This document shows positions 5,262 through 62,151 of a DNA stretch of 64,000 nt, one piece after another. The stretch's first letter is position 1; each line of letters begins with the position of its first letter. The DNA lies in the NCBI GenBank assembly GCA_041650495.1, contig JBAZLB010000004.1, positions 39,281 through 103,280 of the forward strand, read 5' to 3'. The position numbers and the translations under genes are program-made. The notes under the pieces were generated by a model, which had not been told where the DNA came from, ran no database searches, and saw nothing but the letters and a program-made list of their open reading frames with translations. The stretch comes from Candidatus Omnitrophota bacterium (lineage in GTDB: Bacteria; Omnitrophota; Gorgyraeia; Gygaellales; Profunditerraquicolaceae).

Positions 5262-7806
5262 AACAACAATTAATAATCTGATGGCAATTTTTATTACATT
5301 TTTTCACTTCTTCCCTGATTTTCTCCGCTGTCTCGGAAAACCATATGTCATAAATATCCCTCTCAAGAACATTCCCGATTGAATCCATCTCTTCGCAGAA
5401 CGTAACATTACCTTTCTCATTGATGCTCAGGAATGAATATCCCATATTGCAGGTGATATGCTTACGGATATATTGATTCGGGTCCGCATAGTACTTTTTA
5501 TAATTCACCAGTTGAGAAACGGGATTGCCTAACTTGTGGTATCCGGACATCTTCATTTCAATTAATTTATCAATGATGTCGTGTAACTGCTGCTTGTCCT
5601 GAGGCCATAACGTTTTACTTCCCGGCCTTTTATACCACCCTGCATCTTTTTCATACCCGCGCGGCTGGATCAAGCCTAAGAAATTTATAAGATTAATCTT
5701 TTTATTCCCTTGGACCCATGTTAAGAGCGGAATAACATCATCCAAATTCTCTTGCAGTATTATCATAAGTAAATTTATTTCTGTTTGCGGGGCATAGCGA
5801 TGCAACAATTCTATTGCCTCCATGACTTTAACATAAGACCCGTCTACGCCCCTTATGAAATCATGCCGCTCCTTATTGAGACTATCTAAAGAAAGCGCGA
5901 TTGTCCGTAACCCCGATTCCCCTATAGATTGCGCCTGCTTTTTATCAATTAAATAGCCATTAGAACATACCGCGGTCAAAAACCCGTTATCATTAGCAAA
6001 TCTAATTAAGTCAGTTAAGCCTTCTTTTAAAAACGGTTCTCCGCCGGCAAAATTTATCTGGCAATGGTTATCGGCTACGCGTTTAAAAGCAAGCAAAAAA
6101 TCTTTCCATTGCCCTGATGTAAGTTCTTCATTGCTATCCTGCTTCCAGATTTGACACATCTTACATCTAAAATTACACCTATATACTATTCCTAATGCAC
6201 AAAAACGCGGCCTTATGATTTCCAGGGCTTCTTGGCGGGATAAATGCTTACTATAAGAACCGGAAGACACGCACGCCAGATCGTAACGGCGCTTCTCCCG
6301 CATCGCTTTATCTAGCTCTCTTTTAAGTTCTTCCCGACGGGGGGCCATCTTTAGGGCTTCCTTCAATTCTCTTATAGCTTCATCAAATTGATGCTGTTTT
6401 AAGAATATGCCGCTTAAGCCGATATACGAATCTATTGATCCGGAGGCTATCTGCCTGAAATCTAAATACAGCTGCTTTGCCTCTTCATACCGATTATATT
6501 GTTTATATATACTCGCTAAGCCGTTCAACGCGCTGATATCTCCGGGATCAATATCCGACATTCTCTTATAGGCTGCTTCAGCTCTATCATAGTCTTTTCT
6601 CTCATAACAAAGTTCCGCTAAACAACCTAACGCTGGCTTACTTCTGCTGTCTATCTTAAGAATATCTTCACATAGCTGTTCTGAGGAATCGTATAGTTTG
6701 TTTTCTTTATAGCAGGCCGCAAGCAGTTCCATTGTTTTTATATCTCCGGGAGAGAGGACTAATATTCTTTCATATAAACCTGCGGCTTTGCCGGGTAGCG
6801 TTTGGCTATAATATAAATCAGCGAGCTGCTTAAGCAATGTTATACAAGCAGGCTCTAAACGTAATCCATGATGATAAAGTGCGATTGCTTTATCGTAACC
6901 GCCGTGTCTCTGATAGGCCTGAGCTAATTTCTCCAGCCATACCAATCTCTCCCCGCCCTTGTTAAAGAACGCCTTAATTAATCTTTCGGCTTCTTTAAGC
7001 CGCTGCTGCTGCAATAAATAATTACCTACTGCAGAGATACCCTCGGTAGTGCTCCTGTCAAGCCTCAACCCTTTGCGATAAACCTTGATGCCTTGGCTTG
7101 TCTTGCCCATTTTCACTAAGGCACCGCCGTGTCTCTGATAGGCCTGAGCTAATTTCTCCAGCCATACCAATCTCTCCCCGCCCTTGTTAAAGAACGCCTT
7201 AATTAATCTTTCGGCTTCTTTAAGCCGCTGCTGCTCTAATAAATAATTACCTACTGTAGAGATACCCTCGGTAGTGCTCCTGTCAAGCCTCAACCCTTTG
7301 CGATAAACCTTGATGCCTTGGCTTGTCTTGCCCATTTTCACTAAGGCACCGGCTAACCCTTTATACACAGGACTTCCTGATGGCATGGTCTTTAATGCCT
7401 TGCGAAACATGTTTTTAGCTTCTTTATATTGCCCAGCCATATCGAGTAAAACCCCTAAATTATACTGGGCCCACCCATGATTTTTGTTTATTAGCAATAT
7501 TTCCTGGCTTAAACGTAGAGAATCGGAATATTGTCCTGTTTGTCTGGAAATATCTGCCAAGCCATACAAGGCTGTTTCGTTTTTCGTATCAAGTGCAATG
7601 GCTTCCTTAAAATACTCTGCGGCCTCTGTATATCTGCTTTGTTCTCTTAAAGTTTGCCCCATAAAAATAAAAACATCGGGATCAGAAGATCCTTTGCTAA
7701 GGATTTCTTTAAAACATTTAACGGCCTCAGTATACTCTCCGGCAAAAAAATGCGACCTACCTCTTGTTTTAAGATCGGAATGGGTTGTTTTGGTTTCTAG
7801 TGGCAT
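5218..7806 (-). CDS. TPR-repeat (~520 aa) fused to family-A radical SAM domain
   Basis: 862 aa. The N-terminal half is TPR-like helical repeats with a duplicated 75-aa segment. The C-terminal half carries FCALGIVYRCNFRCKMCQIW (CxxxCxxC), FAGGEPFL and the terminal motif CNKNCHQIINC shared with the five stand-alone family-A paralogs. Confidence 0.8.
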   Translation of the reverse strand: MPLETKTTHSDLKTRGRSHFFAGEYTEAVKCFKEILSKGSSDPDVFIFMGQTLREQSRYTEAAEYFKEAIALDTKNETALYGLADISRQTGQYSDSLRLSQEILLINKNHGWAQYNLGVLLDMAGQYKEAKNMFRKALKTMPSGSPVYKGLAGALVKMGKTSQGIKVYRKGLRLDRSTTEGISTVGNYLLEQQRLKEAERLIKAFFNKGGERLVWLEKLAQAYQRHGGALVKMGKTSQGIKVYRKGLRLDRSTTEGISAVGNYLLQQQRLKEAERLIKAFFNKGGERLVWLEKLAQAYQRHGGYDKAIALYHHGLRLEPACITLLKQLADLYYSQTLPGKAAGLYERILVLSPGDIKTMELLAACYKENKLYDSSEQLCEDILKIDSRSKPALGCLAELCYERKDYDRAEAAYKRMSDIDPGDISALNGLASIYKQYNRYEEAKQLYLDFRQIASGSIDSYIGLSGIFLKQHQFDEAIRELKEALKMAPRREELKRELDKAMREKRRYDLACVSSGSYSKHLSRQEALEIIRPRFCALGIVYRCNFRCKMCQIWKQDSNEELTSGQWKDFLLAFKRVADNHCQINFAGGEPFLKEGLTDLIRFANDNGFLTAVCSNGYLIDKKQAQSIGESGLRTIALSLDSLNKERHDFIRGVDGSYVKVMEAIELLHRYAPQTEINLLMIILQENLDDVIPLLTWVQGNKKINLINFLGLIQPRGYEKDAGWYKRPGSKTLWPQDKQQLHDIIDKLIEMKMSGYHKLGNPVSQLVNYKKYYADPNQYIRKHITCNMGYSFLSINEKGNVTFCEEMDSIGNVLERDIYDIWFSETAEKIREEVKKCNKNCHQIINCCYEEECLGEKDYSAG
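6901..7350. repeat. Direct tandem duplication, 2 x 225 bp, in-frame, inside the TPR region of the TPR-rSAM gene
   Basis: Sequence 6901-7125 is repeated at 7126-7350 with only about 2 mismatches (ctgcaataaa/ctctaataaa; ctgcagag/ctgtagag). In the protein, ...GGALVKMGKTSQGIKVYRKGLRLDRSTTEGIS.VGNYLL.QQRLKEAERLIKAFFNKGGERLVWLEKLAQAYQRHGG appears twice. Confidence 0.85.
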
Positions 7807-29666: not shown

Positions 29667-30938
29667 TCATTTACTCCAAATCAACCAAACAAACAAAGAA
29701 GCAGTTATAACGGCAACAAGGGTAAACGGCAAGCCTATCTTAAGAAACTGGTTGAATTTAACAATATGCCCTTCTTTTTTTAAAATACCGCATGCGACTA
29801 TATTGGCTGAAGCGCCAATCGGCGTTATATTTCCCCCTACGCTTGCGCCGATAAGAAGACCAAATAATAAAAGCGAAGGATTAATCGCCAACCGGCTAGA
29901 CATGGAAAGAGCTACCGGGAGCATCGCGGCGAGAAAGGGGACATTGTCTATAAAGGCAGAAAAAAGAACAGCAAAAAAAACAAACATGACATAGCCGAGT
30001 AATAGGTTTATCCCCACTAAACCAGACAAAAACTTTGAAAAATAACTAACCCAGCCATTAACAGTAAGCGCCCCCACAATAACAAATACTCCCACCAAAA
30101 ACAAACTCGTATCCCAATCTAATGATCTGATACTTTTTAATATAAATCCCCGTTTGAAAAACTTCTCGTAGGATAACGATGCTATCCCAAATAGCATACA
30201 AATCAATCCCCCCATATAACTGAATCCGGTATCAAAAAAAGATGAAATTGCCAAAGAAAAAATCATAAGAAGTAAAATAAACGTAGGGACCCATGATTTC
30301 ACCTGCTCTGTTTTAAGCAGCTGCGTTCTTTCCTTGTGGCGCCTAAATATAAAATACAACACAACAAAAGATGCTATCGCGCCTAATTCAACGGCAAAAA
30401 AGATACTTGGTCTTCCCCTATAGACAAAAAAATCCATAAAATTCATTTTGGCAAAACCACCCAGAAGCATACTTGGGGGGTCCCCGATCAACGTAGCCGC
30501 ACCCTGAAGATTGCTCGAAATAGCAACCCCGATCATTATATTCATAGGATTGATCTTTAGCTTATGAGATAAAGTAAGCGCAATAGGAGCAACGATTAAA
30601 ACTGTCGCCACATTTTCTACAAAAGCAGAAATAAAACTAGTGAGCACGCATATAGCTACCATAGCCCAGGCGGTATTTCTTGCACGGTTAACAATTATTT
30701 CTGCAATATACGCCGGTACTCTGCTTTCCATAAAAGTATCCGCAACAACCAATGTGCCAATAAATATCCCCATGACGTTCCAATTAATCGCCCCCAAGGC
30801 TTCTTGGAAAGTAACGGCCGTGGTTACCACAAGTAGGATACTTGCCCCAAAAGCAACAAAAGACCTTCGGGCAGGGAATACCACAAATAAAATGTAAGCT
30901 GTCAGGAAGACTGCTAATGTAAGGATACTTTTATCCAT
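29667..30938 (-). CDS. ArsB/NhaD-superfamily anion permease (CitMHS/ArsB-like transporter)
   Basis: 423 aa with about 11-12 TM helices. Internal motifs ISSNLQGAATLIGDPPSMLLGG and GASVGGNITPIGASANIV are typical of the ArsB/NhaD permease fold. Confidence 0.6.
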   Translation of the reverse strand: MDKSILTLAVFLTAYILFVVFPARRSFVAFGASILLVVTTAVTFQEALGAINWNVMGIFIGTLVVADTFMESRVPAYIAEIIVNRARNTAWAMVAICVLTSFISAFVENVATVLIVAPIALTLSHKLKINPMNIMIGVAISSNLQGAATLIGDPPSMLLGGFAKMNFMDFFVYRGRPSIFFAVELGAIASFVVLYFIFRRHKERTQLLKTEQVKSWVPTFILLLMIFSLAISSFFDTGFSYMGGLICMLFGIASLSYEKFFKRGFILKSIRSLDWDTSLFLVGVFVIVGALTVNGWVSYFSKFLSGLVGINLLLGYVMFVFFAVLFSAFIDNVPFLAAMLPVALSMSSRLAINPSLLLFGLLIGASVGGNITPIGASANIVACGILKKEGHIVKFNQFLKIGLPFTLVAVITASLFVWLIWSK

Positions 30939-30949
30939 AATACTGTCAA

Positions 30950-31096
30950 TTACTGGTTTGTTTCGGAAGGTTTATTTTGCTCTTTCTTATTCTTCTTATC
31001 CTGCATATTACCTTTTACAATTACATACCCAAAAAAGAATACTATAACACCTAAAAACACATACACCGGCCAATCCTGCCATAAGTTTCCAGTCAT
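30950..31096 (-). CDS. Small membrane protein, 48 aa (MTGNLWQDWPVYVFLGVIVFFFGYVIVKGNMQDKKNKKEQNKPSETNQ)
   Basis: Not in the ORF track (<60 aa). Strong RBS (GAGGAGG 8 nt upstream of ATG). One TM helix plus a Lys-rich tail. It sits between rnfA and the permease and ends 12 nt before the permease start. Confidence 0.4.
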   Translation of the reverse strand: MTGNLWQDWPVYVFLGVIVFFFGYVIVKGNMQDKKNKKEQNKPSETNQ

Positions 31097-31131
31097 ACTT
31101 AAAACCTCCTCATTAGTCTAGTCCGCTTGAA

Positions 31132-31740
31132 CTAAAATTTGAAACCATTAAACCCCATAAATGCAAGGCTCATTATAGAAGCAATGATAAATGCCAAAGG
31201 TAAAATCTTGAATGCCTTGGGCGGATTACAAAGCTCAAGCCGCTCCCTAATACCTGACATCAAAAGCATGGCCAGGGTATAGCCTATCCCAACGCATAAT
31301 CCCTGGAATACCGAAAATATGAAGCCCCCGGATACTGTCTTACTGTTTACAAAGAACATATCGACATTGAGAACCGCTACGCCTAATACGGCGCAGTTCG
31401 TAGTAATCAAAACAAGATAAATACCGAAGGCGCGATAAAGAGCGGGGCTCGTCTTTCTTATTATCATTTCCACCAGTTGCACAAAAGCAGCAATGATTAG
31501 GATAAAGACTAAGGTACGCAAATATGTCAATTGAAACGGGATCAAAAGAAACTTGTAGACTAACCACGTTATAGCAGAAGATATTGTGGTTACAAACGTA
31601 ACTGCCATACTCATCGCAAACGCCTGCCTTGTGTCTTTAGATATGGCGACAAAAGGACACAGTCCCAAGAAACGCGACAGAATAACATTGTTAATAAAAA
31701 CTGCTGAAATAAAAATAGTTAAAAGCTGCGCAGAATTCAT
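31132..31740 (-). CDS. rnfA: Rnf/Nqr family membrane subunit, RnfA/RsxA-like
   Basis: 202 aa. FLGLCPFVAISKDT...TNCAVLGVAVLN...SLAFMGFNG closely follows the RnfA/NqrE consensus (FLGLCPF, TNCAVLG, LAFMGF). No other rnf genes are in the window. Confidence 0.8.
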   Translation of the reverse strand: MNSAQLLTIFISAVFINNVILSRFLGLCPFVAISKDTRQAFAMSMAVTFVTTISSAITWLVYKFLLIPFQLTYLRTLVFILIIAAFVQLVEMIIRKTSPALYRAFGIYLVLITTNCAVLGVAVLNVDMFFVNSKTVSGGFIFSVFQGLCVGIGYTLAMLLMSGIRERLELCNPPKAFKILPLAFIIASIMSLAFMGFNGFKF

Positions 31741-31744
31741 TTTC

Positions 31745-31873
31745 TTACTTTTTCATGCCATTTAATCTTGCTTTTTCATTTCTTGCCTTTATATTGTTCC
31801 TAGTAGTAAACAGCAGTGAGAATAAAATCGCAAGAACAATAACCCCTAACTGTTCTAATATGCTCGTTGACAC
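31745..31873 (-). CDS. Small membrane protein, 42 aa, GTG start (VSTSILEQLGVIVLAILFSLLFTTRNNIKARNEKARLNGMKK)
   Basis: AGGAGGGG RBS 5 nt upstream of GTG. One TM helix. The stop lies 4 nt before the rnfA ATG. It is missed by the ATG-only ORF track. The overlapping plus-strand ORF 31755..32048 is rejected. Confidence 0.35.
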   Translation of the reverse strand: MSTSILEQLGVIVLAILFSLLFTTRNNIKARNEKARLNGMKK

Positions 31874-32147
31874 AGGCCCCTCCTATTTTCTAAGTCGATT
31901 TAATGTCTTGGAATCTTTCCCGCCCAGGCCTTTTCTAAATATCCTGCTGAAACAAAATATCAGCATACTCAAAATAAATGTCCACGAGATTATCATGAAT
32001 ATCCATCCGCTTAATTTCAATCCACACCCCCTTCATCGGATATTATGAGTAATCGCAAAAGCCACACACAATATCCCAGTTGAAATACAGACTTCCATTA
32101 TAATAAATATAACCGCCTTCCTTTATCCATGCCTCTCCTTTATTAAT

Positions 32148-32228
32148 AAAAAACCGCCACCTGACTTTAAAAGCCAGATGGCGGCCCGACCATCCAAGTC
32201 CTCCGGAAATATACCCTTCCGGACCCTT
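32148..32228 (-). terminator. Conserved two-hairpin element, copy A; distal hairpin plus U6 is an intrinsic terminator for treT
   Basis: Minus-strand RNA: hairpin UCCGGAA-GGGUAUA-UUCCGGA, then conserved core GAUGGUCGGGCCGCCAUCU, then hairpin CCGCCAUCUG/CAGGUGGCGG (10 bp with 1 G-U) followed by UUUUUUAUU. Confidence 0.7.
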
Positions 32229-32313
32229 GCATTAACAAGAAAACCGCTATGTGATAACTTTTAAACGATTTTCAGCGGTTGGAATTCCAGTTTTTGAAAT
32301 TCCATGCTATGAA

Positions 32314-33528
32314 TTAACAGAGATGAACGATATCTTCAGGATGATATAACGAAAGAAACAATAACATATAATCTCTTAAATGACGCGTAATCAGAAAATT
32401 ATTTTTTATATGCTCCCGACCGTTCTCTCCCAGTTTCTTGGCGTATTCGGGACTACTTAACAGCTGTTTTATGGCAAAACTGGCCCCCTCAACAGAATGG
32501 CACAATAATCCTGAATATTTATGTTTTATTTGCAAAGGGATGCCTCCCACATTTGAAGCAATAACTGGTTTTGCTTTCCATAAGGCCTCTGCTACGGTTA
32601 AACCAAAGCCCTCCCGAAGAGACTTTTGGATAATTACATCCGAAGACCTTTGCAACGCATTAACCTCTATATCATTATGAGGTAATAGTAAAATATGGAT
32701 ACCGGGGTCGTTCTTAGCTTTTTCTCTGACTTCACCGAGGACCTTGAATCCTTCCGGGTCATCCCCTGCGGTGCCGCCAGCCAACACCAGCTGGCAATCA
32801 GTATATTTTTTTACCTGCAGGTATGCTTCAATTACGCCTATCGGATCCTTTAGACGGTCAAAGCGGGATACTTGGGTGATGATCGGCTTATCTTTTTTGA
32901 TATTATATTTTTTCAAGACCGCATCTATTGTTTCCTGAGGCAATTCTTTGTTTTTATCGCTTAAGGGGTCAATGGAAGGAGAAATTAGAAATTGCCTAAT
33001 GGGTAATTTCCGGGAAAAGGCAGGGGCAGAAAACACTGCGGAATCGTATTGAGTGATAAAATCCATAAGAAATCCCCAGACCCTTTCATCAGGATTAGAT
33101 ACGTCAATATGGCAGCGCCAAAGCCATTTGTTAGCGGCTTTCTTTTTTATCAGGGCTATTGGCTGCGGGTCATGGACAAAAACTATATCTCCATAGGTAT
33201 CAACATTATCGATATTCTCCCGGCTTGTCTGCATAAATATCTCAAAATCTCTTTGAGTTATTTCTTCGGCCTTGCCGTGTAAGGCGTTATGAAACTTCTT
33301 TGTCACATCAAAGAACTGCTCTCCGCCTTTTATGACGTCCCATTTCGTATCTACGCCTAATTCCACGAGCAGCGGGACCATACGGTTCAATATCTCGGCA
33401 ACTCCACCACCTACAGGAGTAGAATTTATATGCTGGATAACCTTGCCTTTTAACCGCTCGCCAAGCAATCTTAAATCGTCAATAATAGACTGCCCTACCA
33501 AAGGAATATATTTTTCTATCTCTGTCAT
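32314..33528 (-). CDS. treT: Trehalose synthase (nucleotide-sugar:glucose trehalose glycosyltransferring synthase, GT4)
   Basis: 404 aa. HINSTPVGGGVAEILNRMVPLLVELGVDTKWDVIKGGEQFFDVTKKFHNALHG matches the conserved TreT N-terminal block. The C-terminus has the GT4 E-x7-E region. Confidence 0.7.
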   Translation of the reverse strand: MTEIEKYIPLVGQSIIDDLRLLGERLKGKVIQHINSTPVGGGVAEILNRMVPLLVELGVDTKWDVIKGGEQFFDVTKKFHNALHGKAEEITQRDFEIFMQTSRENIDNVDTYGDIVFVHDPQPIALIKKKAANKWLWRCHIDVSNPDERVWGFLMDFITQYDSAVFSAPAFSRKLPIRQFLISPSIDPLSDKNKELPQETIDAVLKKYNIKKDKPIITQVSRFDRLKDPIGVIEAYLQVKKYTDCQLVLAGGTAGDDPEGFKVLGEVREKAKNDPGIHILLLPHNDIEVNALQRSSDVIIQKSLREGFGLTVAEALWKAKPVIASNVGGIPLQIKHKYSGLLCHSVEGASFAIKQLLSSPEYAKKLGENGREHIKNNFLITRHLRDYMLLFLSLYHPEDIVHLC

Positions 33529-33529
33529 T

Positions 33530-34201
33530 TTATTGCGAAATTCTTCTTTCGATTATTTGGATAATCGTTTTCCTTAAATCCTCTAAAGTGCGCGTATAGG
33601 GGTCAAAGCCGGCAATAGCATCTCCCAATTCTTTATCGCCTAAAGAATTCTCTATCCAAAACGAGAAGTCATTGGTTGGTTTCTCAAGCCTAAGCCGCGC
33701 CTCAAAAATATGAAAATAAATCGAATCTATGGTGATTTTCTTCAGGATATCCGCAAATTCCTTTAAATCATAGGCAGTATAATTTTTCGGCAGAATAAAA
33801 CTGACTGATTTGATAAAATGGAATTCTTCTCCGGGACGCGCGAATTTTAATTTGGCAAATGAGCTGCCGCTTAAATATTCCTCAATAGTTTGCGCGATCT
33901 TGTCCCGCAGGCTGCGTATAGTTGAATATTGCATAGTGTCAATGCTGGCTAATTTTTCTCCGAGCTCATCTTCTCCCAGGATATCCGTTACCCAATATGC
34001 AAAGTCATTCGGGGGTTCGGGAGAAAGATATTGGTGTTGTTGCAAGAATCTATGGGTGTGGTGATAGATGCATGAACCAGGCACTTCCTTAATAAGAGCC
34101 AACAATTGGCCCAAGGTGGCGGCTCGTAATCCAGTCAGCTCTGACAAGTGCAATCTCGTGCAAAACCTAAATGGCTCTTTGGTTCTTATTAATTCTGTCA
34201 T
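33530..34201 (-). CDS. Hypothetical protein with internal duplication, co-clustered with trehalose genes
   Basis: 223 aa. Two ~90-aa repeats: NDFAYWVTDILGEDELGEKLASIDTMQYSTIRSLRDKIAQTIEE and NDFSFWIENSLGDKELGDAIAGFDPYTRTLEDLRKTIIQIIE. Its stop lies 2 nt from the treT start. Confidence 0.5.
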   Translation of the reverse strand: MTELIRTKEPFRFCTRLHLSELTGLRAATLGQLLALIKEVPGSCIYHHTHRFLQQHQYLSPEPPNDFAYWVTDILGEDELGEKLASIDTMQYSTIRSLRDKIAQTIEEYLSGSSFAKLKFARPGEEFHFIKSVSFILPKNYTAYDLKEFADILKKITIDSIYFHIFEARLRLEKPTNDFSFWIENSLGDKELGDAIAGFDPYTRTLEDLRKTIIQIIERRISQ

Positions 34202-34203
34202 AA

Positions 34204-35073
34204 TTAGTTATGTTTTAAGTCCAATATTAAACGTAAAAACCGAGTTACCTCTTCCGGGCCCTTCAGGTAATAGCCCGCCTTGGAGCTACCCGGCTCTCCC
34301 ACAAATACCGTCAGCCCTTTTCTTTTTAATACCTTAAAAGCGTCTTCATCGGTTACATCGTCTCCTATATACACAGGAAAAACCATTTTTTTCCCCAAGG
34401 CGGATTGCTGCCTTGTCAAAAGCCATAAGACAACCTTACCCTTATCCCATTCAACAGGGGGTTTTATCTCATAAACCTTTTTACCGGGATTAACCTTTAT
34501 CTTATCGCGCACTATATAAGGGGTAGTGACTTCGGCAATGATCTTCTCAAACGCAGGCAGATCTTTTTTGGCGACTAAACGATAGTGGATACTTAAGGTT
34601 AATCCTTTGTCCTCAACCAACGCGCCTTTGATGCCTGAAATCTGCTTTTGTATTTCCGCGGCAATATTCCGCATAATTGATTTTAACCGCGGGGAAACCT
34701 GGCTTTCAAATTTCATCTTTGGACCTTCGATTTCCAGGCCGTGGTTACCCGCATAAATAACGCCTTCTATCCCCATAACATTCTTTATGTCCTCCAAAGA
34801 CCTGCCGCTGATAATGCCTAACTTGCAATAATCACTTCTGGACAGCTTCTGCAATAATTCTTTGGTTTCTTTAGAGATAACTGCCTTCTTAGGGTCTTCT
34901 ACAATCGGGGTTAATGTCCCGTCGTAATCCAACAAAAGTAAAATAAAATTACTACATAATTGTTCATTTATTTTACTAAATTTAGTAAACAAATACTCCA
35001 CGCTTAAACCCCGCTCCTGCCTAACTAAACCTTCTTCAATGCTGTTAATTCCGTGATTATGTTGCCCGCCCAA
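34204..35073 (-). CDS. otsB: Trehalose-6-phosphate phosphatase (HAD family)
   Basis: LLLDYDGTLTPIV (HAD motif I DxDGT), K...GDDVTDEDAF (motif III). 289 aa. Confidence 0.8.
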   Translation of the reverse strand: MGGQHNHGINSIEEGLVRQERGLSVEYLFTKFSKINEQLCSNFILLLLDYDGTLTPIVEDPKKAVISKETKELLQKLSRSDYCKLGIISGRSLEDIKNVMGIEGVIYAGNHGLEIEGPKMKFESQVSPRLKSIMRNIAAEIQKQISGIKGALVEDKGLTLSIHYRLVAKKDLPAFEKIIAEVTTPYIVRDKIKVNPGKKVYEIKPPVEWDKGKVVLWLLTRQQSALGKKMVFPVYIGDDVTDEDAFKVLKRKGLTVFVGEPGSSKAGYYLKGPEEVTRFLRLILDLKHN

Positions 35074-37262
35074 CGATAAATATTATTTTCGGCAATGGTC
35101 TTCCTCATATTCTCCATACGTTTTTTCTTTTCATCCGGGGGCATTTCAACGGATACATTTATAGCATCGGCAAATTCTTCGATTGCATAAGGATTGAACT
35201 GGACCGCATCAGTCAATTCCCGGGCGGCGCCTGTAAACTGGCTTAAAATAAGCACGCCGGATAGATCTTTTTTTGTAGCCACGTATTCTTTAGCAACAAG
35301 ATTCATCCCGTCATCCAGAGAGCTAACCAGACAAAAATCAGCCATTTTGTAAAAAGGGATAATCTCATCGGCAGAAAAATGCTTCTTAAGATAAATGATC
35401 GGTTTCCAGCTCCCGTCCATATGTTTCCAGTTTTTCTTTTCAATCAGCTCATCGATCTCTGCCATAAGGTCGTGGTAACGCTTAATATGGACACGGCTGG
35501 GCGCGGCCATCTGGATAAAAACTACTTTTTTCTTATAGTGGGGGTATTTTTCAAAAAATCTGTCAATGGCAAGCACCCGTTCAATAATGCCTTTTGTATA
35601 ATCAATCCTATCCACCCCAACGCCGATAATCTTGTCTTCTAATTCAAATTCGGTTTTAATCTTCGCTATCTGCTTGTCCAAATCCGGCATCCCAGCTTCC
35701 TTATTCATATATCCGTTAACGCTGATAGGGAATGCCCTGATAAAAGTTTCCTTATTTAACCTGACAACGCTGAATTTTTCCGTGTCTACCCTTGACTCAA
35801 GGAGCCTGTTTGCCGTATCCAAGAAGTTATTGCAGTGGTTCTGCACATGAAATCCCACCAAGTCACAACCAAGCATTCCGTCTAAGATTTCTTTGCGGTA
35901 AGGGCATATGGAAAATGACTCTGGGGTCGGCCAGGGGATATGCCAGAATAAAGCGATAGTGGCATCAGGTCTTTTTTCTTTAATTATCCTGGCTAAGAGC
36001 GTAAAGTGGTAATCCTGAATAAACACAAAAGGGTCCTTAACAGGCAATTCCTCTAACAGGCTATCAGCAAACTTTTGGTTTACTTTTTTGTAGACATTCC
36101 AATCCGCTTCTCTAAAAATAGGACGCGTATGCGTATTGTGACAAAGCGGCCACAGCCCTTCATTGGAAAAACCGTAATAGTAACCATCCTCCTCTTCCTT
36201 ATTCAGCCATACTCTCTTTAAAATATAGCGGTTATCTTCTGGCGGGACACCAAGCTTATTTTTTGAATTTACAAATTTTCTGTCTGCATTACCGGCGCCA
36301 TGGGCTATCCATGTCCCTCCGCAGGCGCATAGAATCGGATGTATAGCAGTGACAACACCGCTTGCCGGTCTTATACACTTAGTTATCCCCGTGACCTCGT
36401 CTATAACATGCATATACGGTTCCCGGTTCGAAACTACAAATAATGCGTTCTCGCCCAACTTTGCATTAACGAGGTCTCTTAATTTTACTTCTGTCCATGT
36501 CTCTTCTTTTTGCAGCCGCGCAGACGCTTCATCAGAAATTGTCCTGCGGGCGACCCTAAGGCTCAATGCCACCTGTTCTACTTCGCTAGCAAGTTTACCA
36601 AGTTCTCCCCTTTCTTTGATCGGATGGAAATCATCGGTTTCTCCTCTTTGAAAATGTTCAAACCAGGCTGTCAAACGCTGCAGGGGAATAGCAAATATCT
36701 GCTGATGCAGAAAAATTGCTATAATAAAGATTATTATCACCAGGACTATGAGCGTTGCACTGATTCTCTTCCATAGCTCTGTCAATCGGGTAAATACGTA
36801 AGAAGTATCATATACAACTTCGACTAATCCCAAAACCTGCCCTTCGTCGTCTGTTATGGGGAGGATATAGCTATAAACGGTATAACCTTTAAATTTCTCC
36901 AGTTCACCTCTGGGGGTCTTGTTTAACAACAAATCTTTCAGATAAGGCTTCTCTTTTTCTTTCCAGTCATTGAAACGTTTAGTAATGGCCATGATGTTTC
37001 CGTCTTTATCGTATAAAACACATCCCTGCAGCCTTTCCCGTGTCTCGAATTTTTCGGCAAGGTAATTGGCATTTCTCATGTCTTTTGCAAAGAAGATACC
37101 CTTCGCCGATAACTCCATGCTTTCTGCGATGTGTTTGGATTTACGCTTCAAATCATCGATGAGCCTCTCTTCTTCAAAGCGGACTTGGAAGTAGCCAAAA
37201 AGGGTAAAGGCCGCGGCAACAACGATGAGGATAGGTAAAATAAATAACAAAATGCGCCTCAT
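35025..37262 (-). CDS. otsA: Membrane sensor-HAMP domain fused to trehalose-6-phosphate synthase (GT20)
   Basis: 745 aa. TM1 (res 5-25), ~140-aa extracytoplasmic region, TM2 (LIVLVIIIFIIAIFL), HAMP-like segment (IPLQRLTAWFEHFQRGETDDF...LASEVEQVALSL), then the OtsA core (NEGLWPLCHNTHTRP, ...ILSQFTGAA...). Confidence 0.75.
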   Translation of the reverse strand: MRRILLFILPILIVVAAAFTLFGYFQVRFEEERLIDDLKRKSKHIAESMELSAKGIFFAKDMRNANYLAEKFETRERLQGCVLYDKDGNIMAITKRFNDWKEKEKPYLKDLLLNKTPRGELEKFKGYTVYSYILPITDDEGQVLGLVEVVYDTSYVFTRLTELWKRISATLIVLVIIIFIIAIFLHQQIFAIPLQRLTAWFEHFQRGETDDFHPIKERGELGKLASEVEQVALSLRVARRTISDEASARLQKEETWTEVKLRDLVNAKLGENALFVVSNREPYMHVIDEVTGITKCIRPASGVVTAIHPILCACGGTWIAHGAGNADRKFVNSKNKLGVPPEDNRYILKRVWLNKEEEDGYYYGFSNEGLWPLCHNTHTRPIFREADWNVYKKVNQKFADSLLEELPVKDPFVFIQDYHFTLLARIIKEKRPDATIALFWHIPWPTPESFSICPYRKEILDGMLGCDLVGFHVQNHCNNFLDTANRLLESRVDTEKFSVVRLNKETFIRAFPISVNGYMNKEAGMPDLDKQIAKIKTEFELEDKIIGVGVDRIDYTKGIIERVLAIDRFFEKYPHYKKKVVFIQMAAPSRVHIKRYHDLMAEIDELIEKKNWKHMDGSWKPIIYLKKHFSADEIIPFYKMADFCLVSSLDDGMNLVAKEYVATKKDLSGVLILSQFTGAARELTDAVQFNPYAIEEFADAINVSVEMPPDEKKKRMENMRKTIAENNIYRWAGNIITELTALKKV

Positions 37263-38317
37263 TTTTCACCTCTTTCCTGGCTGTAATTCATAGCCCTGAT
37301 AGGATAGGGGATAACAATCCCTTCCTTTTTATAGCGCTCCTGAAGCCTCTTGATAAATTCATGCTTAACCAGGTACTGATCCACAAATTCTTTAGCCCTC
37401 AATATTACGGTAAGATTGATACCAGAATCTCCGAAACTGCCATACCTAATAAAAGGCTCGCATTCTGGCACTCCCCCCGGCACATTGTCCATTACTTCTT
37501 TCGCGACTTCGCAGGTAACTTTTTCCACGCGCTTCAGATCGCTCTTATAATGGACGCTTAAATTAACCAGCACTGCCATTGCCTTATCCGGCAAGTAGTA
37601 GTTAGTAACGGTTGCCTTGGTTAACTTCTCATTAGGCACCAAGATAACATTATTAGGCAGCATCTTTATCTTGGTAGTGCGCCAAGTGATATCCGTAATG
37701 TATCCTTCCTCTCCTGAGTCTAGTCTTACATAATCGCCGATTCTAACTTGTTTGGATATAATAATATGAAATCCCGAGAAAAGATTGGAAAGCGTGTTTT
37801 GTAAAGCTAAGGCAACCGCAATGCCGCCTACTCCTAAAGTAGCCAGTATCGGTGTAATAGAAATTCCTAGGCTGTGCAGGATAATTAAGATCCCGATAAT
37901 GAATACAAGTATCCGGCTAATGTTTTGCGTAAGGGAAGTAACTGGTAAAGCAGCCTCGATTTTACTGGAATATACACTAACTAATTTAGCCGAGATATTA
38001 GCCAAGACAAAGGTAATAGAAAGAACGCCCAGGACAAGCAAGAGTTTATCTATTACATGTACTAGATTTTCCGGCAACCTTGAAAACTCGAGAGCAAAAT
38101 AAATACCCAGCATTAAAAACCAGACTATGAACGGCCCTTTTATTGAATCTATAATAACATCGTCAACTTTGGTCTTGGTATGTTTTGACCAGCGGCTAAG
38201 GCGGGCAAAAACAATCTTTCTTACAATAAACCCGCAGAGCAAGGTTATAAGACATACCCCCAGCGGCACTAAGGTTTTAAATAAATTCTCGATAGAAAGG
38301 ATTGAAATAATATTCAC
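37259..38317 (-). CDS. Small-conductance mechanosensitive channel (MscS family)
   Basis: 352 aa. Three N-terminal TM helices plus the conserved MscS pore/beta region (GIAVALALQNTLSNLFSGFHIIISKQVRIGDYV). Confidence 0.75.
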   Translation of the reverse strand: MNIISILSIENLFKTLVPLGVCLITLLCGFIVRKIVFARLSRWSKHTKTKVDDVIIDSIKGPFIVWFLMLGIYFALEFSRLPENLVHVIDKLLLVLGVLSITFVLANISAKLVSVYSSKIEAALPVTSLTQNISRILVFIIGILIILHSLGISITPILATLGVGGIAVALALQNTLSNLFSGFHIIISKQVRIGDYVRLDSGEEGYITDITWRTTKIKMLPNNVILVPNEKLTKATVTNYYLPDKAMAVLVNLSVHYKSDLKRVEKVTCEVAKEVMDNVPGGVPECEPFIRYGSFGDSGINLTVILRAKEFVDQYLVKHEFIKRLQERYKKEGIVIPYPIRAMNYSQERGEK

Positions 38318-38338
38318 TTTATTGTCCCTTCAGAAATC

Positions 38339-38419
38339 AAAAACCACCACCTGCATTCATATGCAAGATGGCGGCCCGACCATCTTAAAAATAACCTCTG
38401 GAGGCAGCTATCTCCAGAC
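38339..38419 (-). terminator. Conserved two-hairpin element, copy B; terminator downstream of the tRNA-Val/tRNA-Asp unit
   Basis: Same architecture as copy A, with an identical 19-nt core (gatggcggcccgaccatc on the plus strand). The flanking hairpins are conserved in structure with compensatory changes (UCUGGAG/CUCCAGA; CCGCCAUCUUGC/GCAGGUGGUGG), followed by UUUUUGAUUU on the minus strand. Confidence 0.65.
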
Positions 38420-38702
38420 CACTTATTATCTTAATCGTTGCAGATATCATTATACATCAAACAGGCACTTTTACAATCTCCTTGTTATCTTAGATTACAA
38501 GGCGTTTGTTTGTTCCTCATCAACCCTGTTATTCTTTGATATCAAAGGGGGTAAGAACTTATTTTCCGATTATTTTCTATAAAATCTTACGGCCAAATTG
38601 TGGCCGGCCGGGGACCAAAAATATGCTAAGATGCCGCCTATCCCCATGATTATCTACAAACAGGAAATCCCCGAAATTGCTTACGGGGATTAGTGTTATA
38701 TA

Positions 38703-38778
38703 CGGGCCCGACGAGATTTGAACTCGCGGTCTTCAGATCGACAATCTGACGTGCTAAACCAGACTGCACCACGGGCCC
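38703..38778 (-). tRNA. tRNA-Asp (anticodon GTC)
   Basis: Manual cloverleaf: GGGCCCG acceptor stem, D-arm GCAGTCTGGTTTAGC, anticodon stem-loop TCAGA-TTGTCGA-TCTGA (GUC), T-arm GCGAGTTCAAATCTCGT, discriminator G. The 3-prime CCA is not encoded. Confidence 0.85.
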
Positions 38779-38862
38779 GAACAGCAGGATATAGATTTTA
38801 AGCTAAAGTCCTGTTTTTTGCAACAGTTATTTACCCCTAGCTTAAACACTCAAAAATTTCTA

Positions 38863-38937
38863 TGGGCGGTACAGGACTTGAACCTGTAAACCTCCTGAAT
38901 GTAAGTCAGGCGCGCTAACCAATTGCGCCAACCGCCC
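38863..38937 (-). tRNA. tRNA-Val (anticodon TAC)
   Basis: Manual cloverleaf: GGGCGGT acceptor, D-arm GCGCAATTGGTTAGCGC, anticodon stem-loop CCTGA-CTTACAT-TCAGG (UAC), T-arm CAGGTTCAAGTCCTG, discriminator A. CCA is not encoded. Confidence 0.85.
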
Positions 38938-38980: not shown

Positions 38981-39601
38981 CTAATGGCTGCGGACAATCT
39001 CCTTGACCCGCATCAGGCGCACAAGATTGCCGCGTTCAAATTCATTCAGTTTCTGGGTAATATAGCGGATGGTATCCTGTATGGAGGGAATAAGTATATA
39101 CTCCAGGGCATTCACCCGGCGGCGGGTGCGTTCAATTTCATAAGAGAGAATATCCAGGGTCTTTACAAGCTGCGCCAGTTTTAAGAGTGATTGTATATAA
39201 TCCCTGGCCTGAGCTACTGCCATATCCAGCTGGGCTGAGGCCTTGAAGAAATCATAGCCCTTTTCTATTTTTATCTTCTGTATGTCAAATACAGGGACCT
39301 TGACATTCATAACCCTTCTGGTATCTACTTTAATGTCGATATCGGAATTGATTTTTGCCAAAGAACCCACAAAATCTACGGATGAACTGCTAACACGAAA
39401 ATAAAGCAGGTCCCGGAAAATCCCCCTGGTGCGTGACATAAAATCCTCTTTGGAATAATGGATATCTTTAACCAGAGACAGGAACCGGCGCATCATCTCT
39501 TCAAGTTTATCCTGCAGGAGTTTATGCCCCCTTTGCGCAAGCAGAAGCCTGCGCCTGAGCCGGAGCAATTCCATCCTGTTGGGATTGACACGCAGTATCA
39601 T
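38981..39601 (-). CDS. atpD: A/V-type ATP synthase subunit D
   Basis: 206 aa, coiled-coil rich, [29 protein letters not shown] is typical of V-type D. It is the last gene of the operon and overlaps atpB by 4 nt. Confidence 0.8.
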
Positions 39602-40974
39602 CGTTTTCCTTCATAATATTTATCCAGGTATTCTTCCCTGATACGCTTCAATTCCTGCCGGGGAATTAAACGTAAAAGCCCCCATCCCGTATCCAGGGTC
39701 TGAATGATAGAGCGCTCCTCGGATTCTTCCTGCCGGACGAATTTATCCTCAAAACCGTCGGCGAATTTTAAATAAAGTTTATCCAAATCCGAGAGGGCTG
39801 CCTCACCCAGGATCACCGCCAGTTCCCTGGATTCTTTGCCTTTAGCATAGCAGGCAAAGAGCTGGTTTAAAACATCGGAGTGGTCCTGGCGGGTCTTGTC
39901 TTTACCAATGCCTTTGTCTTTGAGCCGGGAGAGGCTGGGCAAAACATCTACCGGCGGATATACCCCCTTGCGGTGCAATTCGCGGGAGAGCATAATCTGG
40001 CCTTCGGTAATGTATCCGGTCAAATCCGGTATGGGGTGGGTTTTATCATCCTCAGGCATTGTTAATACCGGCAGGAGGGTAATAGAGCCGCTCTTACCTT
40101 TAATGCGGCCCGCCCTTTCATAAAGGGTAGATAAGTCCGTATAAAGATACCCTGGATAACCCCTGCGGCCGGGAATTTCCTTGCGGGCAGCGGAAACCTC
40201 GCGCAAGGATTCACAATAAAATGCCATATCAATAAGTATGACCAAGACATGCATATCCAAATCAAAAGCCAGGTATTCGGCACAGGTAAGCGCAAGGCGG
40301 GGGGTAGAGATTCTCTCTATCGCAGGGTCATTGGCTAAATTTATGAATAAAACGCTTCTCTCAATGGCGCCGGTATTGCGGAAATCACGCATAAAGAAAT
40401 CCGCCTCTTCAAAGGTAATCCCCATAGCCCCGAAGACAACCGCGAAGCCTTCATCTTTACCCAAAACCTTAGCTTGACGGGCAATCTGGGCGGTGAGTTG
40501 CGCATGCGGCAGGCCCGAGGCAGAAAATATAGGAAGTTTCTGCCCGCGGACCAAAGGGTTCATCCCGTCAATGGTAGAGATGCCGGTTTGAATAAACTCC
40601 GAAGGATATGCCCGGGCGCTGGGATTAATGGGGCTGCCGTTGATATCTATCCGTTTATCGGCGATAACCTGCGCCCCGCCGTCGCGGGGACGGCCTGCGC
40701 CGTTAAAGATACGCCCGATTAAATCCCGTGATACGGATAATTCCTGCGTGCGGCCTAAGAAACGCACCTTGGAATCTGCTATATCCATACCGATAGTCCC
40801 CTCAAACATCTGCACCAGGGCCTTATCTTCATAAACCTCAAGGACCTTCCCCCGGCGGGAATGGCCGTCTGAGAATTCAACTTCCACAAGCTCCGCGTAT
40901 TTAATATTCTCGGTTTTCTCCACTATCACCAGGGGCCCGGAAACCGAAGTAACAGTATGGTATTCTCTAATCAT
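39598..40974 (-). CDS. atpB: A/V-type ATP synthase subunit B (regulatory)
   Basis: 458 aa. The P-loop-like region is degenerate, as in B subunits. The [10 protein letters not shown]...[22 protein letters not shown] block is conserved. Confidence 0.9.
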
Positions 40975-42709
40975 ATGCGCTCCTTAACTCTTCTTCTAAC
41001 CTATCGAATTCTCCTGAGGCTTCCTCAGGGATATATTTGACCCGGCTTATCCTTTCCCGCAACGGCATCTTTACGATATCGTCAAACTCCAAGCCCTCTT
41101 TAAGCCTTATTTTAGCGAAGGAATGAAACCCCATGATTATCTTTAACATACGGTATTGCTTGGCCAGAGAGGTATAGGTATCCACTTCATGAAAGGCATT
41201 CTGATGCAGGAAATCCTCACGGATAGATTTGGCAGTCTCTAAAACCAGGCGGTCGTCAAACGAAAGAGACTCCACCCCCACCAGGCGGGCAATTTCCAAT
41301 AACGAAGACTCCTCCTCAAGCAGACGCATTGCCTCCTGCTTTAAAGAAATGAATTCTTCGGCAATATTCTTATTTAAGAACTCTTCCAGGCTGGTGTGGT
41401 AAAGGGAATAGCTCAACAACCAGTTGATGGCCGGGAAATGCCGGGCATTGGCTAATTTATCATCCAGCCCCCAAAAGACCTTGGCTACGCGCAACGTCGC
41501 CTGCACTACCGGATCAGATAAGTCCCCTCCCGGAGGAGAAACCGCCCCCATAATGCTTAATGCGCCCTGACGGTTGTCGCTGCCTAAACAGGTAACTTTT
41601 CCGGAGCGTTCGTAAAATTCCGCCAACCGTGAAGATAAATAGGCAGGGTAGCCTTCCTCCCCCGGCATCTCTTCGAGCCTGCCGGAAATCTCACGCAATG
41701 CCTCTGCCCAACGGGAGGTGGAATCCGCCATCAAGGCAACGGAATAGCCCATATCGCGGAAATACTCAGCAATAGTAATGCCCGTATAGATGGATGCCTC
41801 CCGGGCTGCCACCGGCATATTGGAAGTATTGGCAATGATAACCGTGCGCTCAAGCAGGGGACGGCCGGTGCGCGGGTCCTTCAATTGCGGAAAACTTAAA
41901 AGCAGGTCAGCGCATTCATTGCCTCTTTCTCCGCACGCCACATAAACAATGACCTGCGCGTCAGACCACTTAGCCACCTCATGCATAGTAACCGTCTTGC
42001 CTGCGCCAAAAGGCCCGGGGATACAGGCTGTGCCCCCCTTGGCAATAGGAAAGAAGGTATCAATGACCCTCTGCCCCGTGGTCAACGGCTCATCAGGGGC
42101 GAATTTTTCCTGGATAGGCCTGGCCTTTCTTACTGACCAGCGCTGCGACATAAGAATATCCTTGAATCCCTGGCTTGTCTTGACCCTGGCCACTGCCTCC
42201 CGTATAGTAAAATCACCTGCGCGTATATCCACTACCTCGCCGGTTATCCCGGGGGGGACCATAACCTTGTGTTCAATCAAAGCTGTCTCCTCAACCACTC
42301 CCAGTATATCTCCTGAGACAACTTGCTGACCCATAGAGGCCTTGGGCTTAAAATGCCACTTCTTCAGGGCGTCTAATCCCGCAATATCAATCCCGCGCGG
42401 GATAAAATCACCGCAAGACTGCATAATAACATTCAGGGGGCGTTGTATGCCGTCATAAATAGAATTAATCAAGCCGGGGCCCAATTCCACGCTTAAAGGT
42501 TCGTTAGTCAAATAAACCGGCTCCCCTGGGCCTATGCCAGAGGTCTCTTCATATACCTGTATGTAAGCCAGGTCGTTTTTAAGTTCCACGATTTCACCGA
42601 TTAATTTCTTGGCGGAAACCCGCACCATATCATACATCTTAGCGCCCTTACAGCCGCAGGCGACTACCAAAGGCCCGGATACCTTGATGATCTTAGCTTG
42701 TTTTGTCAT
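40967..42709 (-). CDS. atpA: A/V-type ATP synthase subunit A (catalytic)
   Basis: 580 aa. Walker [31 protein letters not shown], and the non-homologous insert region typical of A subunits. Confidence 0.9.
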
Positions 42710-62004: not shown

Positions 62005-62030
62005 CTAAAAACAGCCCCAAATGCGCATAA

Positions 62031-62072
62031 ACAAAAAACCCGACCGCTTTCTTTGCTTAAAGCAGCCGGGTT
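62031..62072 (-). terminator. Intrinsic terminator in the pyrR leader (attenuator)
   Basis: Minus RNA: CCCGGCUGCUUU-AAGCAAAG-AAAGCGGUCGGG (12-bp stem including 2 G-U) followed by UUUUUUGUUU, ending about 27 nt upstream of the pyrR ATG. Confidence 0.7.
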
Positions 62073-62151
62073 CGTTTTCTGGTCAATAATTAAGTGCATG
62101 TTTTATCCTTACTAGTTTCTCGCGAACTAGTTTAAAGGTTATATTCAATAT

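Follow-up and report, generated by a model that had tools for sequence, protein, structure and literature searches.

Two nhaA-I-class RNA elements as likely cation-responsive ON switches of trehalose-synthesis and transporter genes in a probable Omnitrophota bacterium

What is the role of two copies of a two-hairpin RNA element that lie on the minus strand of contig JBAZLB010000004.1, one behind treT and the other behind a tRNA-Val/Asp unit, in a 64-kb stretch of DNA (64,000 nt, hereafter the window) from an uncultured, probably Omnitrophota, bacterium? The original prediction, made from the sequence alone, read them as modules at the 3' ends of transcription units. Based on family membership, structure, covariation, the overlap of aptamer and terminator and the gene context of both copies, we propose instead that the two elements are, in all likelihood, monovalent-cation riboswitches of the nhaA-I class (the Li+-I/Na+-II family), situated in minus-strand 5' leaders and operating as transcriptional ON switches.

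The assignment is carried by an Rfam scan of the whole window, in which nhaA-I RNA (RF03057) covers both copies end to end on the minus strand. Copy 1 (32176-32226) reaches 46.7 bits and copy 2 (38366-38421) 43.8 bits, with a gathering threshold of 37 bits, each over model positions 1-55 of 55 and not truncated; a covariance model built in this analysis gives 60.9 and 57.1 bits, respectively. Weinberg et al. (2017) reported the nhaA-I motif from the 5' untranslated regions (5' UTRs) of Na+/H+ antiporter genes and proposed it as a possible sodium-related riboswitch; it has been validated as the Li+-I riboswitch (White et al. 2022, Sci Rep 12:19145). The earlier suspicion that the elements are more than generic terminators is borne out by these full-length matches. 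Protein-dependent antiterminator targets (ANTAR two-hairpin substrates; RAT/BglG-type), considered from the anatomy, were dropped because both copies match nhaA-I over the full model.

The two copies are joined by a plus-strand 18-mer, GATGGCGGCCCGACCATC, of which the window holds exactly two occurrences (32177-32194 and 38367-38384; 0.02 would be expected by chance). The shared identity extends to 19 nt when the preceding A is counted, in agreement with the identical 19-nt core that had been noticed at the two sites. A search of the window for the 18-mer with up to 3 mismatches gave no extra match, and neither this search, Rfam at E-values up to 0.5 nor our covariance model detected a third or degenerate copy in the 64 kb. 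Including the expression platform, the derived riboswitch spans are 32148-32226 for copy 1 and 38339-38421 for copy 2, matching the coordinates originally given (32148-32228 and 38339-38419).

Read along the minus strand, each element consists of GGGU (UGGU in copy 2), the stem P1, a GAGG junction, a short linker, the stem P2, and a strong hairpin that reuses GGGCCGCCAUC and runs into U5-6. The P1 flanks, GGGU on the 5' side and AGG on the 3' side, are found in both copies, with the exception of the UGGU of copy 2. The P1 sequences differ with pairing kept, CCGGAA/UUCCGG in copy 1 vs CUGGAG/CUCCAG in copy 2; GAUGGUCGGGCCGCCAUC is the same in both copies, equals the Rfam consensus and contains the invariant GGUCGGGCCGCC with loop CGGGCC and a closing U-G. 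In an alignment of 63 sequences, i.e. the two window copies, 57 homologues among the matches listed from a genome-collection scan and four published aptamers, all six P1 pairs are changed on both sides and 96.8% of the cells form standard pairs. None of 500 shuffles equalled the observed values, and sliding the partner columns out of register drops pairing to 30-65%. P2 and its loop, of which P2 was fixed by the search pattern, are near-invariant in the same alignment. The palindromic core is the aptamer stem P2 with its conserved CGGGCC loop, and the flanking hairpin in which compensatory changes had been noticed is P1.

The same comparison bears on a different origin of the repeats. Two copies in the same orientation bracket a discrete five-gene cassette next to tRNA genes, an arrangement also expected of functionless direct repeats (att-like or recombination scars) that arose when the 6.2-kb trehalose cassette was inserted or duplicated. 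We regard this as extremely improbable: the identity is confined to family-invariant nucleotides, with P1, linker and terminator loop all differing, the relatives L028, L081 and L093 have a single copy upstream of the same operon, and the core is unlike a tRNA 3' end.

In both copies the 5' strand of the terminator is made of three P2-loop nucleotides and the whole 3' strand of P2, and the aptamer and the terminator are therefore mutually exclusive. The original prediction was right on these points, namely the two-hairpin anatomy, the minus-strand orientation of the RNA, the terminal U-tract (U5-6 after the hairpin in both copies) and the two exclusive folds of a palindromic core that overlaps the terminator stem. 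Folding places the terminator state of copy 1 at -41.0 kcal/mol vs -22.7 kcal/mol with P2 enforced. This advantage of 18.3 kcal/mol equals that of the D. propionicus Na+-II leader (-44.2 vs -25.9 kcal/mol), and the corresponding values for copy 2 are -32.4 and -23.6 kcal/mol, an advantage of 8.8 kcal/mol. Transcription of the D. propionicus leader is terminated when ligand is absent and continues when Na+ is added; mutation of the loop or of the junction abolishes this response (White et al. 2022, Sci Rep). It is from this validated riboswitch that we infer the ON logic of both window elements.

We propose that the elements operate as follows. In the ligand-free state, the P2 loop and 3' strand (GGGCCGCCAUC) would pair with the downstream complement, and the resulting 14-17-bp hairpin, followed by U5-6, would stop RNA polymerase. 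Binding of the cation would stabilise the aptamer, i.e. P1, the GGGU/GAGG junction and P2 with its CGGGCC loop, such that P2 keeps its 3' strand, the terminator is blocked and transcription goes on. Copy 2 would govern mscS-otsA-otsB-DUF5752-treT, hence trehalose synthesis and a mechanosensitive channel, and copy 1 several small membrane peptides together with an rnfA-like protein and a CitMHS/NhaD-like permease. The signal would most likely be raised intracellular Na+, as in salt or osmotic stress, with a possible cross-response to Li+ and NH4+.

A similar two-stem architecture, a P2-competing terminator and ON logic are also known from the Na+-I riboswitch (DUF1646 motif; White et al. 2022, Nat Chem Biol 18:878), which regulates Na+ transport and osmoprotectant genes. 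Na+-I has, however, distinct conserved nucleotides in the lower P1 and the P2 loop, and membership was rejected, as Rfam, searched at E-values up to 0.5, gave no DUF1646-motif match in any part of the window.

Whether the elements close one transcription unit or open the next can be judged from their surroundings. A minus-strand gene, treT or tRNA-Val/Asp, does precede each copy, and this part of the original description stands; the placement at 3' ends does not. RF03057 is a 5'-leader family, the best promoter-like site of the region lies ~25 nt upstream of the copy 2 aptamer, and Shine-Dalgarno sequences with start codons follow both U-tracts: GAAGGGA with the GTG start of mscS ~20 nt past that of copy 2, and a strong AAAGGAGAGG with an ATG 17 nt past that of copy 1. 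Copy 2 sits ~280 nt downstream of tRNA-Asp, in a spacer where a hairpin directly after the tRNA is followed by the promoter-like site; copy 1 starts ~85 nt past the treT stop codon. Among the matches listed, the element is always upstream of genes in about 70 homologous loci from many phyla, with the downstream gene set, not the upstream one, as the conserved partner. Alternatively, the copies would be regulatory terminators, REP-like (repetitive extragenic palindromic) repeats or small-RNA 3' modules that close the treT and tRNA units, perhaps as protein-binding or processing sites. Such modules would explain why each copy follows a minus-strand gene and ends in a hairpin with a U-tract, and in the Omnitrophica metagenome-assembled genome (MAG) locus L030 the aptamer begins just 15 nt past the treT stop codon, so treT transcripts could end at the copy 1 terminator as well. 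Nevertheless, we consider a 3' module very improbable, given the full-length matches to a riboswitch family found in 5' UTRs, the conserved downstream partners, and the ~280 nt, extra hairpin and promoter-like site that part copy 2 from tRNA-Asp. A G+C-rich hairpin with a U-tract, repeated in the window, is indeed shared with ordinary intrinsic terminators and REP-type repeats, but here it is coupled to a conserved, covarying aptamer that lies in front of genes of related function in several phyla, and there are two copies only in 64 kb, unlike in REP families.

The proposed leader elements have numerous relatives, contrary to the possibility, raised originally, that nothing similar occurs elsewhere. 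A genome-collection scan for the GAGG type, with consensus P2 and U or C at position 54, returned at least 120 loci. Position 54 (D. propionicus numbering) directly precedes the CGGGCC loop on its 5' side, as mapped from the wild-type and M4 templates (Supplementary Table II). Among the matches listed, to which all counts in this paragraph refer, 57 aptamers were kept after a pairing check and ~70 are genuine according to our covariance model. All GAGG aptamers but one have U54, the exception being L073; the other C-containing scan matches were rejected as chance matches in G+C-rich coding DNA. The L073 aptamer (6747-6799, plus strand), from a Verrucomicrobiota MAG, is the only genuine GAGG aptamer with C54 on a consensus P2 helix; it is without a terminator and upstream of an MscS-like gene, and offers a natural counterpart for a specificity comparison. 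A P2-overlapping terminator is present in 33 of 59 GAGG aptamers (the 57 and the two window copies), in Omnitrophota (12 loci), Elusimicrobia, Planctomycetota, a Nitrospirae-labelled MAG, Syntrophaceae and other Deltaproteobacteria, while the aptamers lacking it are mostly from Verrucomicrobiota. Since the terminator-type members overwhelmingly have U54, C54 does not serve to mark the terminator/osmotic subclass in general. Open reading frames (ORFs) of at least 100 amino acids (aa) downstream of the 57 aptamers encode OtsA (13), OtsB (8), MscS (about 7), DUF5752 (3), Na+/H+ exchangers (3) and Na+/Ca2+ exchangers (3), besides trehalase-like GH15, ClC, OmpA-family and stand-alone Rnf-Nqr proteins; no NhaA homologue was found downstream of them.

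As a control, 92 genuine canonical aptamers of the CAGG type were taken from the matches listed in a scan of metagenome contigs. Only 5 of the 92 were flagged for a terminator, and the first ORFs of 80 loci encode NhaA in 19, a Na+/H+ exchanger in 8 and OtsA in 1. The commonest first gene family in these loci (21 of 80) encodes a protein of 107-139 aa that contains hydrophobic, membrane-like segments and falls into no Pfam family; examples are the metagenome loci L138, L143, L150, L156, L188 and L197, among others, and L078 (3242-3610). This family probably underlies some of the 'hypothetical' entries in the published table of gene associations. Across the GAGG and CAGG sets, the state of the P1 base correlates with both the expression platform and the gene class, which places the window copies in the osmotic-stress group.

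As to the cation, two published types have to be compared. Na+-II riboswitches are rare nhaA-I variants that have intrinsic terminators and, at D. propionicus position 54, a C in place of the U, and were reported only in Deltaproteobacteria and upstream of hypothetical genes (White et al. 2022, Sci Rep). The D. propionicus member ('hypo') resembles the window copies in the C-G base of P1 (GGGUC...GAGG; GGUC...GAGG in the window), in a terminator 5' strand formed by the P2 loop and P2 3' strand, and in downstream genes that are not nhaA and include small hypothetical ORFs. It differs in having C at the specificity-linked nucleotide, where the window copies have U, and in its P2, GUUAGC/GCUAAC rather than the Li+-I consensus GAUGGU/GCCAUC of the window; moreover, the window host is probably no deltaproteobacterium. 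With Li+-I, on the other hand, the window copies share the two-hairpin aptamer, the GGGU-P1-AGG junction, P2 with GGUCGGGCCGCC, the U 5' of the loop, and the presumed role of a 5'-leader ON switch for cation-related genes. Associations with otsA, mscS, nhaD and citrate-transporter genes are also known for this class (otsA 16, nhaD 6, putative citrate transporter 5, glycosyl transferase 5, mscS 3; Supplementary Table I, White et al. 2022, Sci Rep). However, all three validated Li+-I aptamers have G-C at the P1 base (GGGUG...CAGG), typical members precede nhaA and are thought to control how accessible the ribosome-binding site is, and the family was described in Proteobacteria, whereas the window copies have C-G, use intrinsic terminators, precede trehalose/MscS and permease genes and have their nearest relatives in Omnitrophota. 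Judged by their nucleotides, the window aptamers are hybrids, Na+-II-like in P1 base and terminator platform and Li+-I-like in U54. Their closest tested analogue at both diagnostic positions is the D. propionicus M4 mutant (C54U), for which a response to each of Li+, Na+ and NH4+ was shown (White et al. 2022, Sci Rep).

The same riboswitch and mechanism could thus be Li+-selective, i.e. a true Li+-I member, with trehalose synthesis and the permease serving as a defence against lithium toxicity. As U54 is present in both copies, Li+ selectivity has to be reckoned with; both aptamers also have the Li+-I consensus P2 and loop and lie above the nhaA-I threshold, and Li+ has an effect on the trehalose metabolism of eukaryotes (White et al. 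2022, Sci Rep). Overall, we nevertheless judge a Li+-selective role to be unlikely. The validated Li+-I aptamers, all GGGUG...CAGG, precede nhaA and are without terminators, contrary to the window copies with their GGGUC/UGGUC...GAGG, terminators and downstream osmotic-stress genes, and contrary to the 57 GAGG relatives with no NhaA homologue downstream among the matches listed. Furthermore, Na+ is far more abundant than Li+, which is environmentally rare. For this reason, and because otsA-associated members might sense Na+ according to a remark of White et al. (2022, Sci Rep), we infer Na+ or salt to be the physiological signal, with slightly better than even probability, and a broad response or another cation takes the small share left beside Na+ and Li+.

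More tentatively, and with somewhat less than even confidence, we suggest that GAGG aptamers with a C-G or U-G P1 base, U54 and usually a terminator may form an unnamed specificity subclass of nhaA-I, a physiological sensor of Na+ or ionic strength that would switch on trehalose synthesis. In the searched literature, no work on Na+-II or Li+-I specificity later than the 2022 papers was found.

Some observations weigh against the proposed Na+-responsive 5'-leader switches. The position-54 equivalent is U in both copies (GGU-CGGGCC), which is the Li+-I state. The promoter-like site of copy 2 is a consensus match only, and for copy 1 no convincing promoter was found: the gap between treT and copy 1 holds no consensus promoter and no convincing terminator, only weak A/U-rich hairpins, so that an own promoter and read-through from treT are both possible. 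As the L030 aptamer is only 15 nt from treT, copy 1 may be reached by such read-through. Finally, the GAGG and CAGG sets compared above come from different collections, each covered by the matches listed, with P2 fixed by the search pattern.

The features of the two leaders and of the genes they precede are collected in Table 1. Downstream of copy 2, the genes of the operon (32314-38317, minus strand) are on the same strand and tightly spaced or overlapping, and the gene calls of the source contig agree with this arrangement. The order riboswitch-(mscS)-otsA-otsB-DUF5752-treT is kept in L028, L045, L071, L079, L081, L093, L102 and L109, and the window OtsA has 72-82% identity to proteins of Omnitrophota- and Nitrospirae-labelled MAGs. 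The N-terminal ~270 aa of OtsA give weak matches to dCache and to sensor-kinase N-termini, and many loci, from Omnitrophota, Elusimicrobia and others, keep this long form of 737-754 aa downstream of the riboswitch; this suggests a second, protein-level input into trehalose synthesis. DUF5752 follows otsB in the riboswitch-controlled trehalose operons of the window, L028, L081 and L093, and adjoins treT in the window and L028; its product is a candidate component of the trehalose pathway. On the other side of copy 2, immediately upstream, genes for V-type ATPase subunits A, B and D (38981-42709, minus strand) are followed by tRNA-Val and tRNA-Asp (38702-38937, minus strand). The V-type ATPase, if Na+-translocating, would fit a neighbouring salt regulon. 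Elsewhere in the window, the Rfam scan gave a PyrR binding site (RF00515) at 62029-62142 (minus strand) that is below threshold (40 bits vs gathering 54, E = 0.05).

Table 1. Positions of the two riboswitch elements and of associated features in the window
Feature	Position	Strand	Description	Basis
Copy 2 predicted promoter	38449-38476	-	TTGTAA-16 nt-TATAAT, 10/12 matches	Consensus scan and sequence
Copy 2 aptamer	38366-38421	-	UGGU, P1 CUGGAG..CUCCAG, GAGG junction, P2	Rfam RF03057, own covariance model
Copy 2 P2	38367-38384	-	GAUGGU-CGGGCC-GCCAUC	
Copy 2 expression platform	38339-38375	-	Terminator hairpin GCCGCCAUCUUGCAU / AUGCAGGUGGUGG, about 38375-38344, then U5	Folds
mscS	37259-38317	-	352-aa MscS-family channel, GTG start	Pfam, NCBIfam
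otsA	35025-37262	-	745 aa, GT20, N-terminal sensor-like region	Pfam, NCBIfam
otsB	34204-35073	-		Pfam, NCBIfam
DUF5752	33530-34201	-		Pfam, NCBIfam
treT	32314-33528	-		Pfam, NCBIfam
Copy 1 aptamer	32176-32226	-	GGGU, P1 CCGGAA..UUCCGG, GAGG junction, P2	Rfam RF03057, own covariance model
Copy 1 P2	32177-32194	-	GAUGGU-CGGGCC-GCCAUC	
Copy 1 expression platform	32148-32187	-	17-bp intrinsic terminator hairpin 32187-32151, then U6	Terminator scan, minimum-free-energy folds
Small membrane ORF	32033-32128	-	Hydrophobic	ORF list
Small membrane ORF	31883-32020	-	Hydrophobic	ORF list
Small membrane ORF	31745-31873	-	Hydrophobic	ORF list
rnfA-like gene	31132-31740	-	202 aa; TIGR01943 237.8 bits vs cutoff 229.3	
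Small ORF between rnfA-like gene and permease	30950-31096	-		
Permease	29667-30938	-	423 aa, CitMHS/ArsB-NhaD superfamily	Pfam, NCBIfam

The gene set downstream of copy 1 spans 29667-32128 (minus strand). Its layout recurs in L030, where treT, the riboswitch, small ORFs and a permease follow each other and TreT is 89% identical to that of the window. The small ORFs after copy 1 have no significant Pfam or NCBIfam match. Compared to its 32-aa L030 homologue MDKGMRIIFIIMGVCIFAGVLCVIFAVTHNIR (L030 1178-1273, minus strand), the first of them (ATG at 32128) has a 1-nt deletion and reads MDKGRRLYLLL-stop, with the stop overlapping the ATG of MEVCISTGILCVAFAITHNIR (TAATG); the cause may be either a genuine split with coupled translation or a mistake in the assembly. 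L001, too, has a homologue of this ORF behind the riboswitch. The ORF at 31883-32020 encodes a 45-aa peptide with a single transmembrane segment (MKLSGWIFMIISWT...C.S.IF), which has no Pfam or NCBIfam family and recurs beside nhaA-I riboswitches of both P1 types, in L030, L064, L071, L079, L093, L182 and L199 besides the window. Na+ symporters of the SNF family have it as a fused N-terminal helix in L182 and L199, and it is probably an accessory subunit of Na+-coupled transporters. The rnfA-like gene stands alone between the small ORFs and the permease, with no further rnf or nqr genes next to it; in a Planctomycetales MAG (L064 3280-3882), too, a solitary Rnf-Nqr subunit comes after a riboswitch.

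In conclusion, the window adds two members to a published class of which the fold, the ON logic, the terminator variants and the gene associations are already known; what goes beyond them, namely terminator-type members outside Deltaproteobacteria, the prevalence of U54 among these and the two switches around one trehalose operon, is a modest extension, and nothing is categorically new. The annotation of the two elements is corrected from 3'-end modules to ion-sensing 5' leaders. In their uncultured, probably Omnitrophota, host, the two copies would define a two-operon salt/osmotic-stress regulon that comprises trehalose synthesis and MscS on the one hand, and a putative cation permease and small membrane peptides on the other. 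The switches lie on either side of one trehalose operon and might act in series, in the order copy 2, five genes, copy 1, transporter genes, which, if true, would give a two-threshold, graded salt response. For the family, in the comparison made among the matches listed, terminator-bearing nhaA-I variants are common outside Deltaproteobacteria, the sole group in earlier reports, and the P1-base pair tracks the gene class (osmotic vs nhaA) better than the published position-54 marker. If the GAGG aptamers do form a specificity subclass, position 54 alone would not define Na+ vs Li+ sensing, and the terminator-type variants would extend well beyond Deltaproteobacteria. The comparison thereby provides a handle on a question left open by White et al., namely whether the otsA-associated 'Li+' riboswitches sense Na+.

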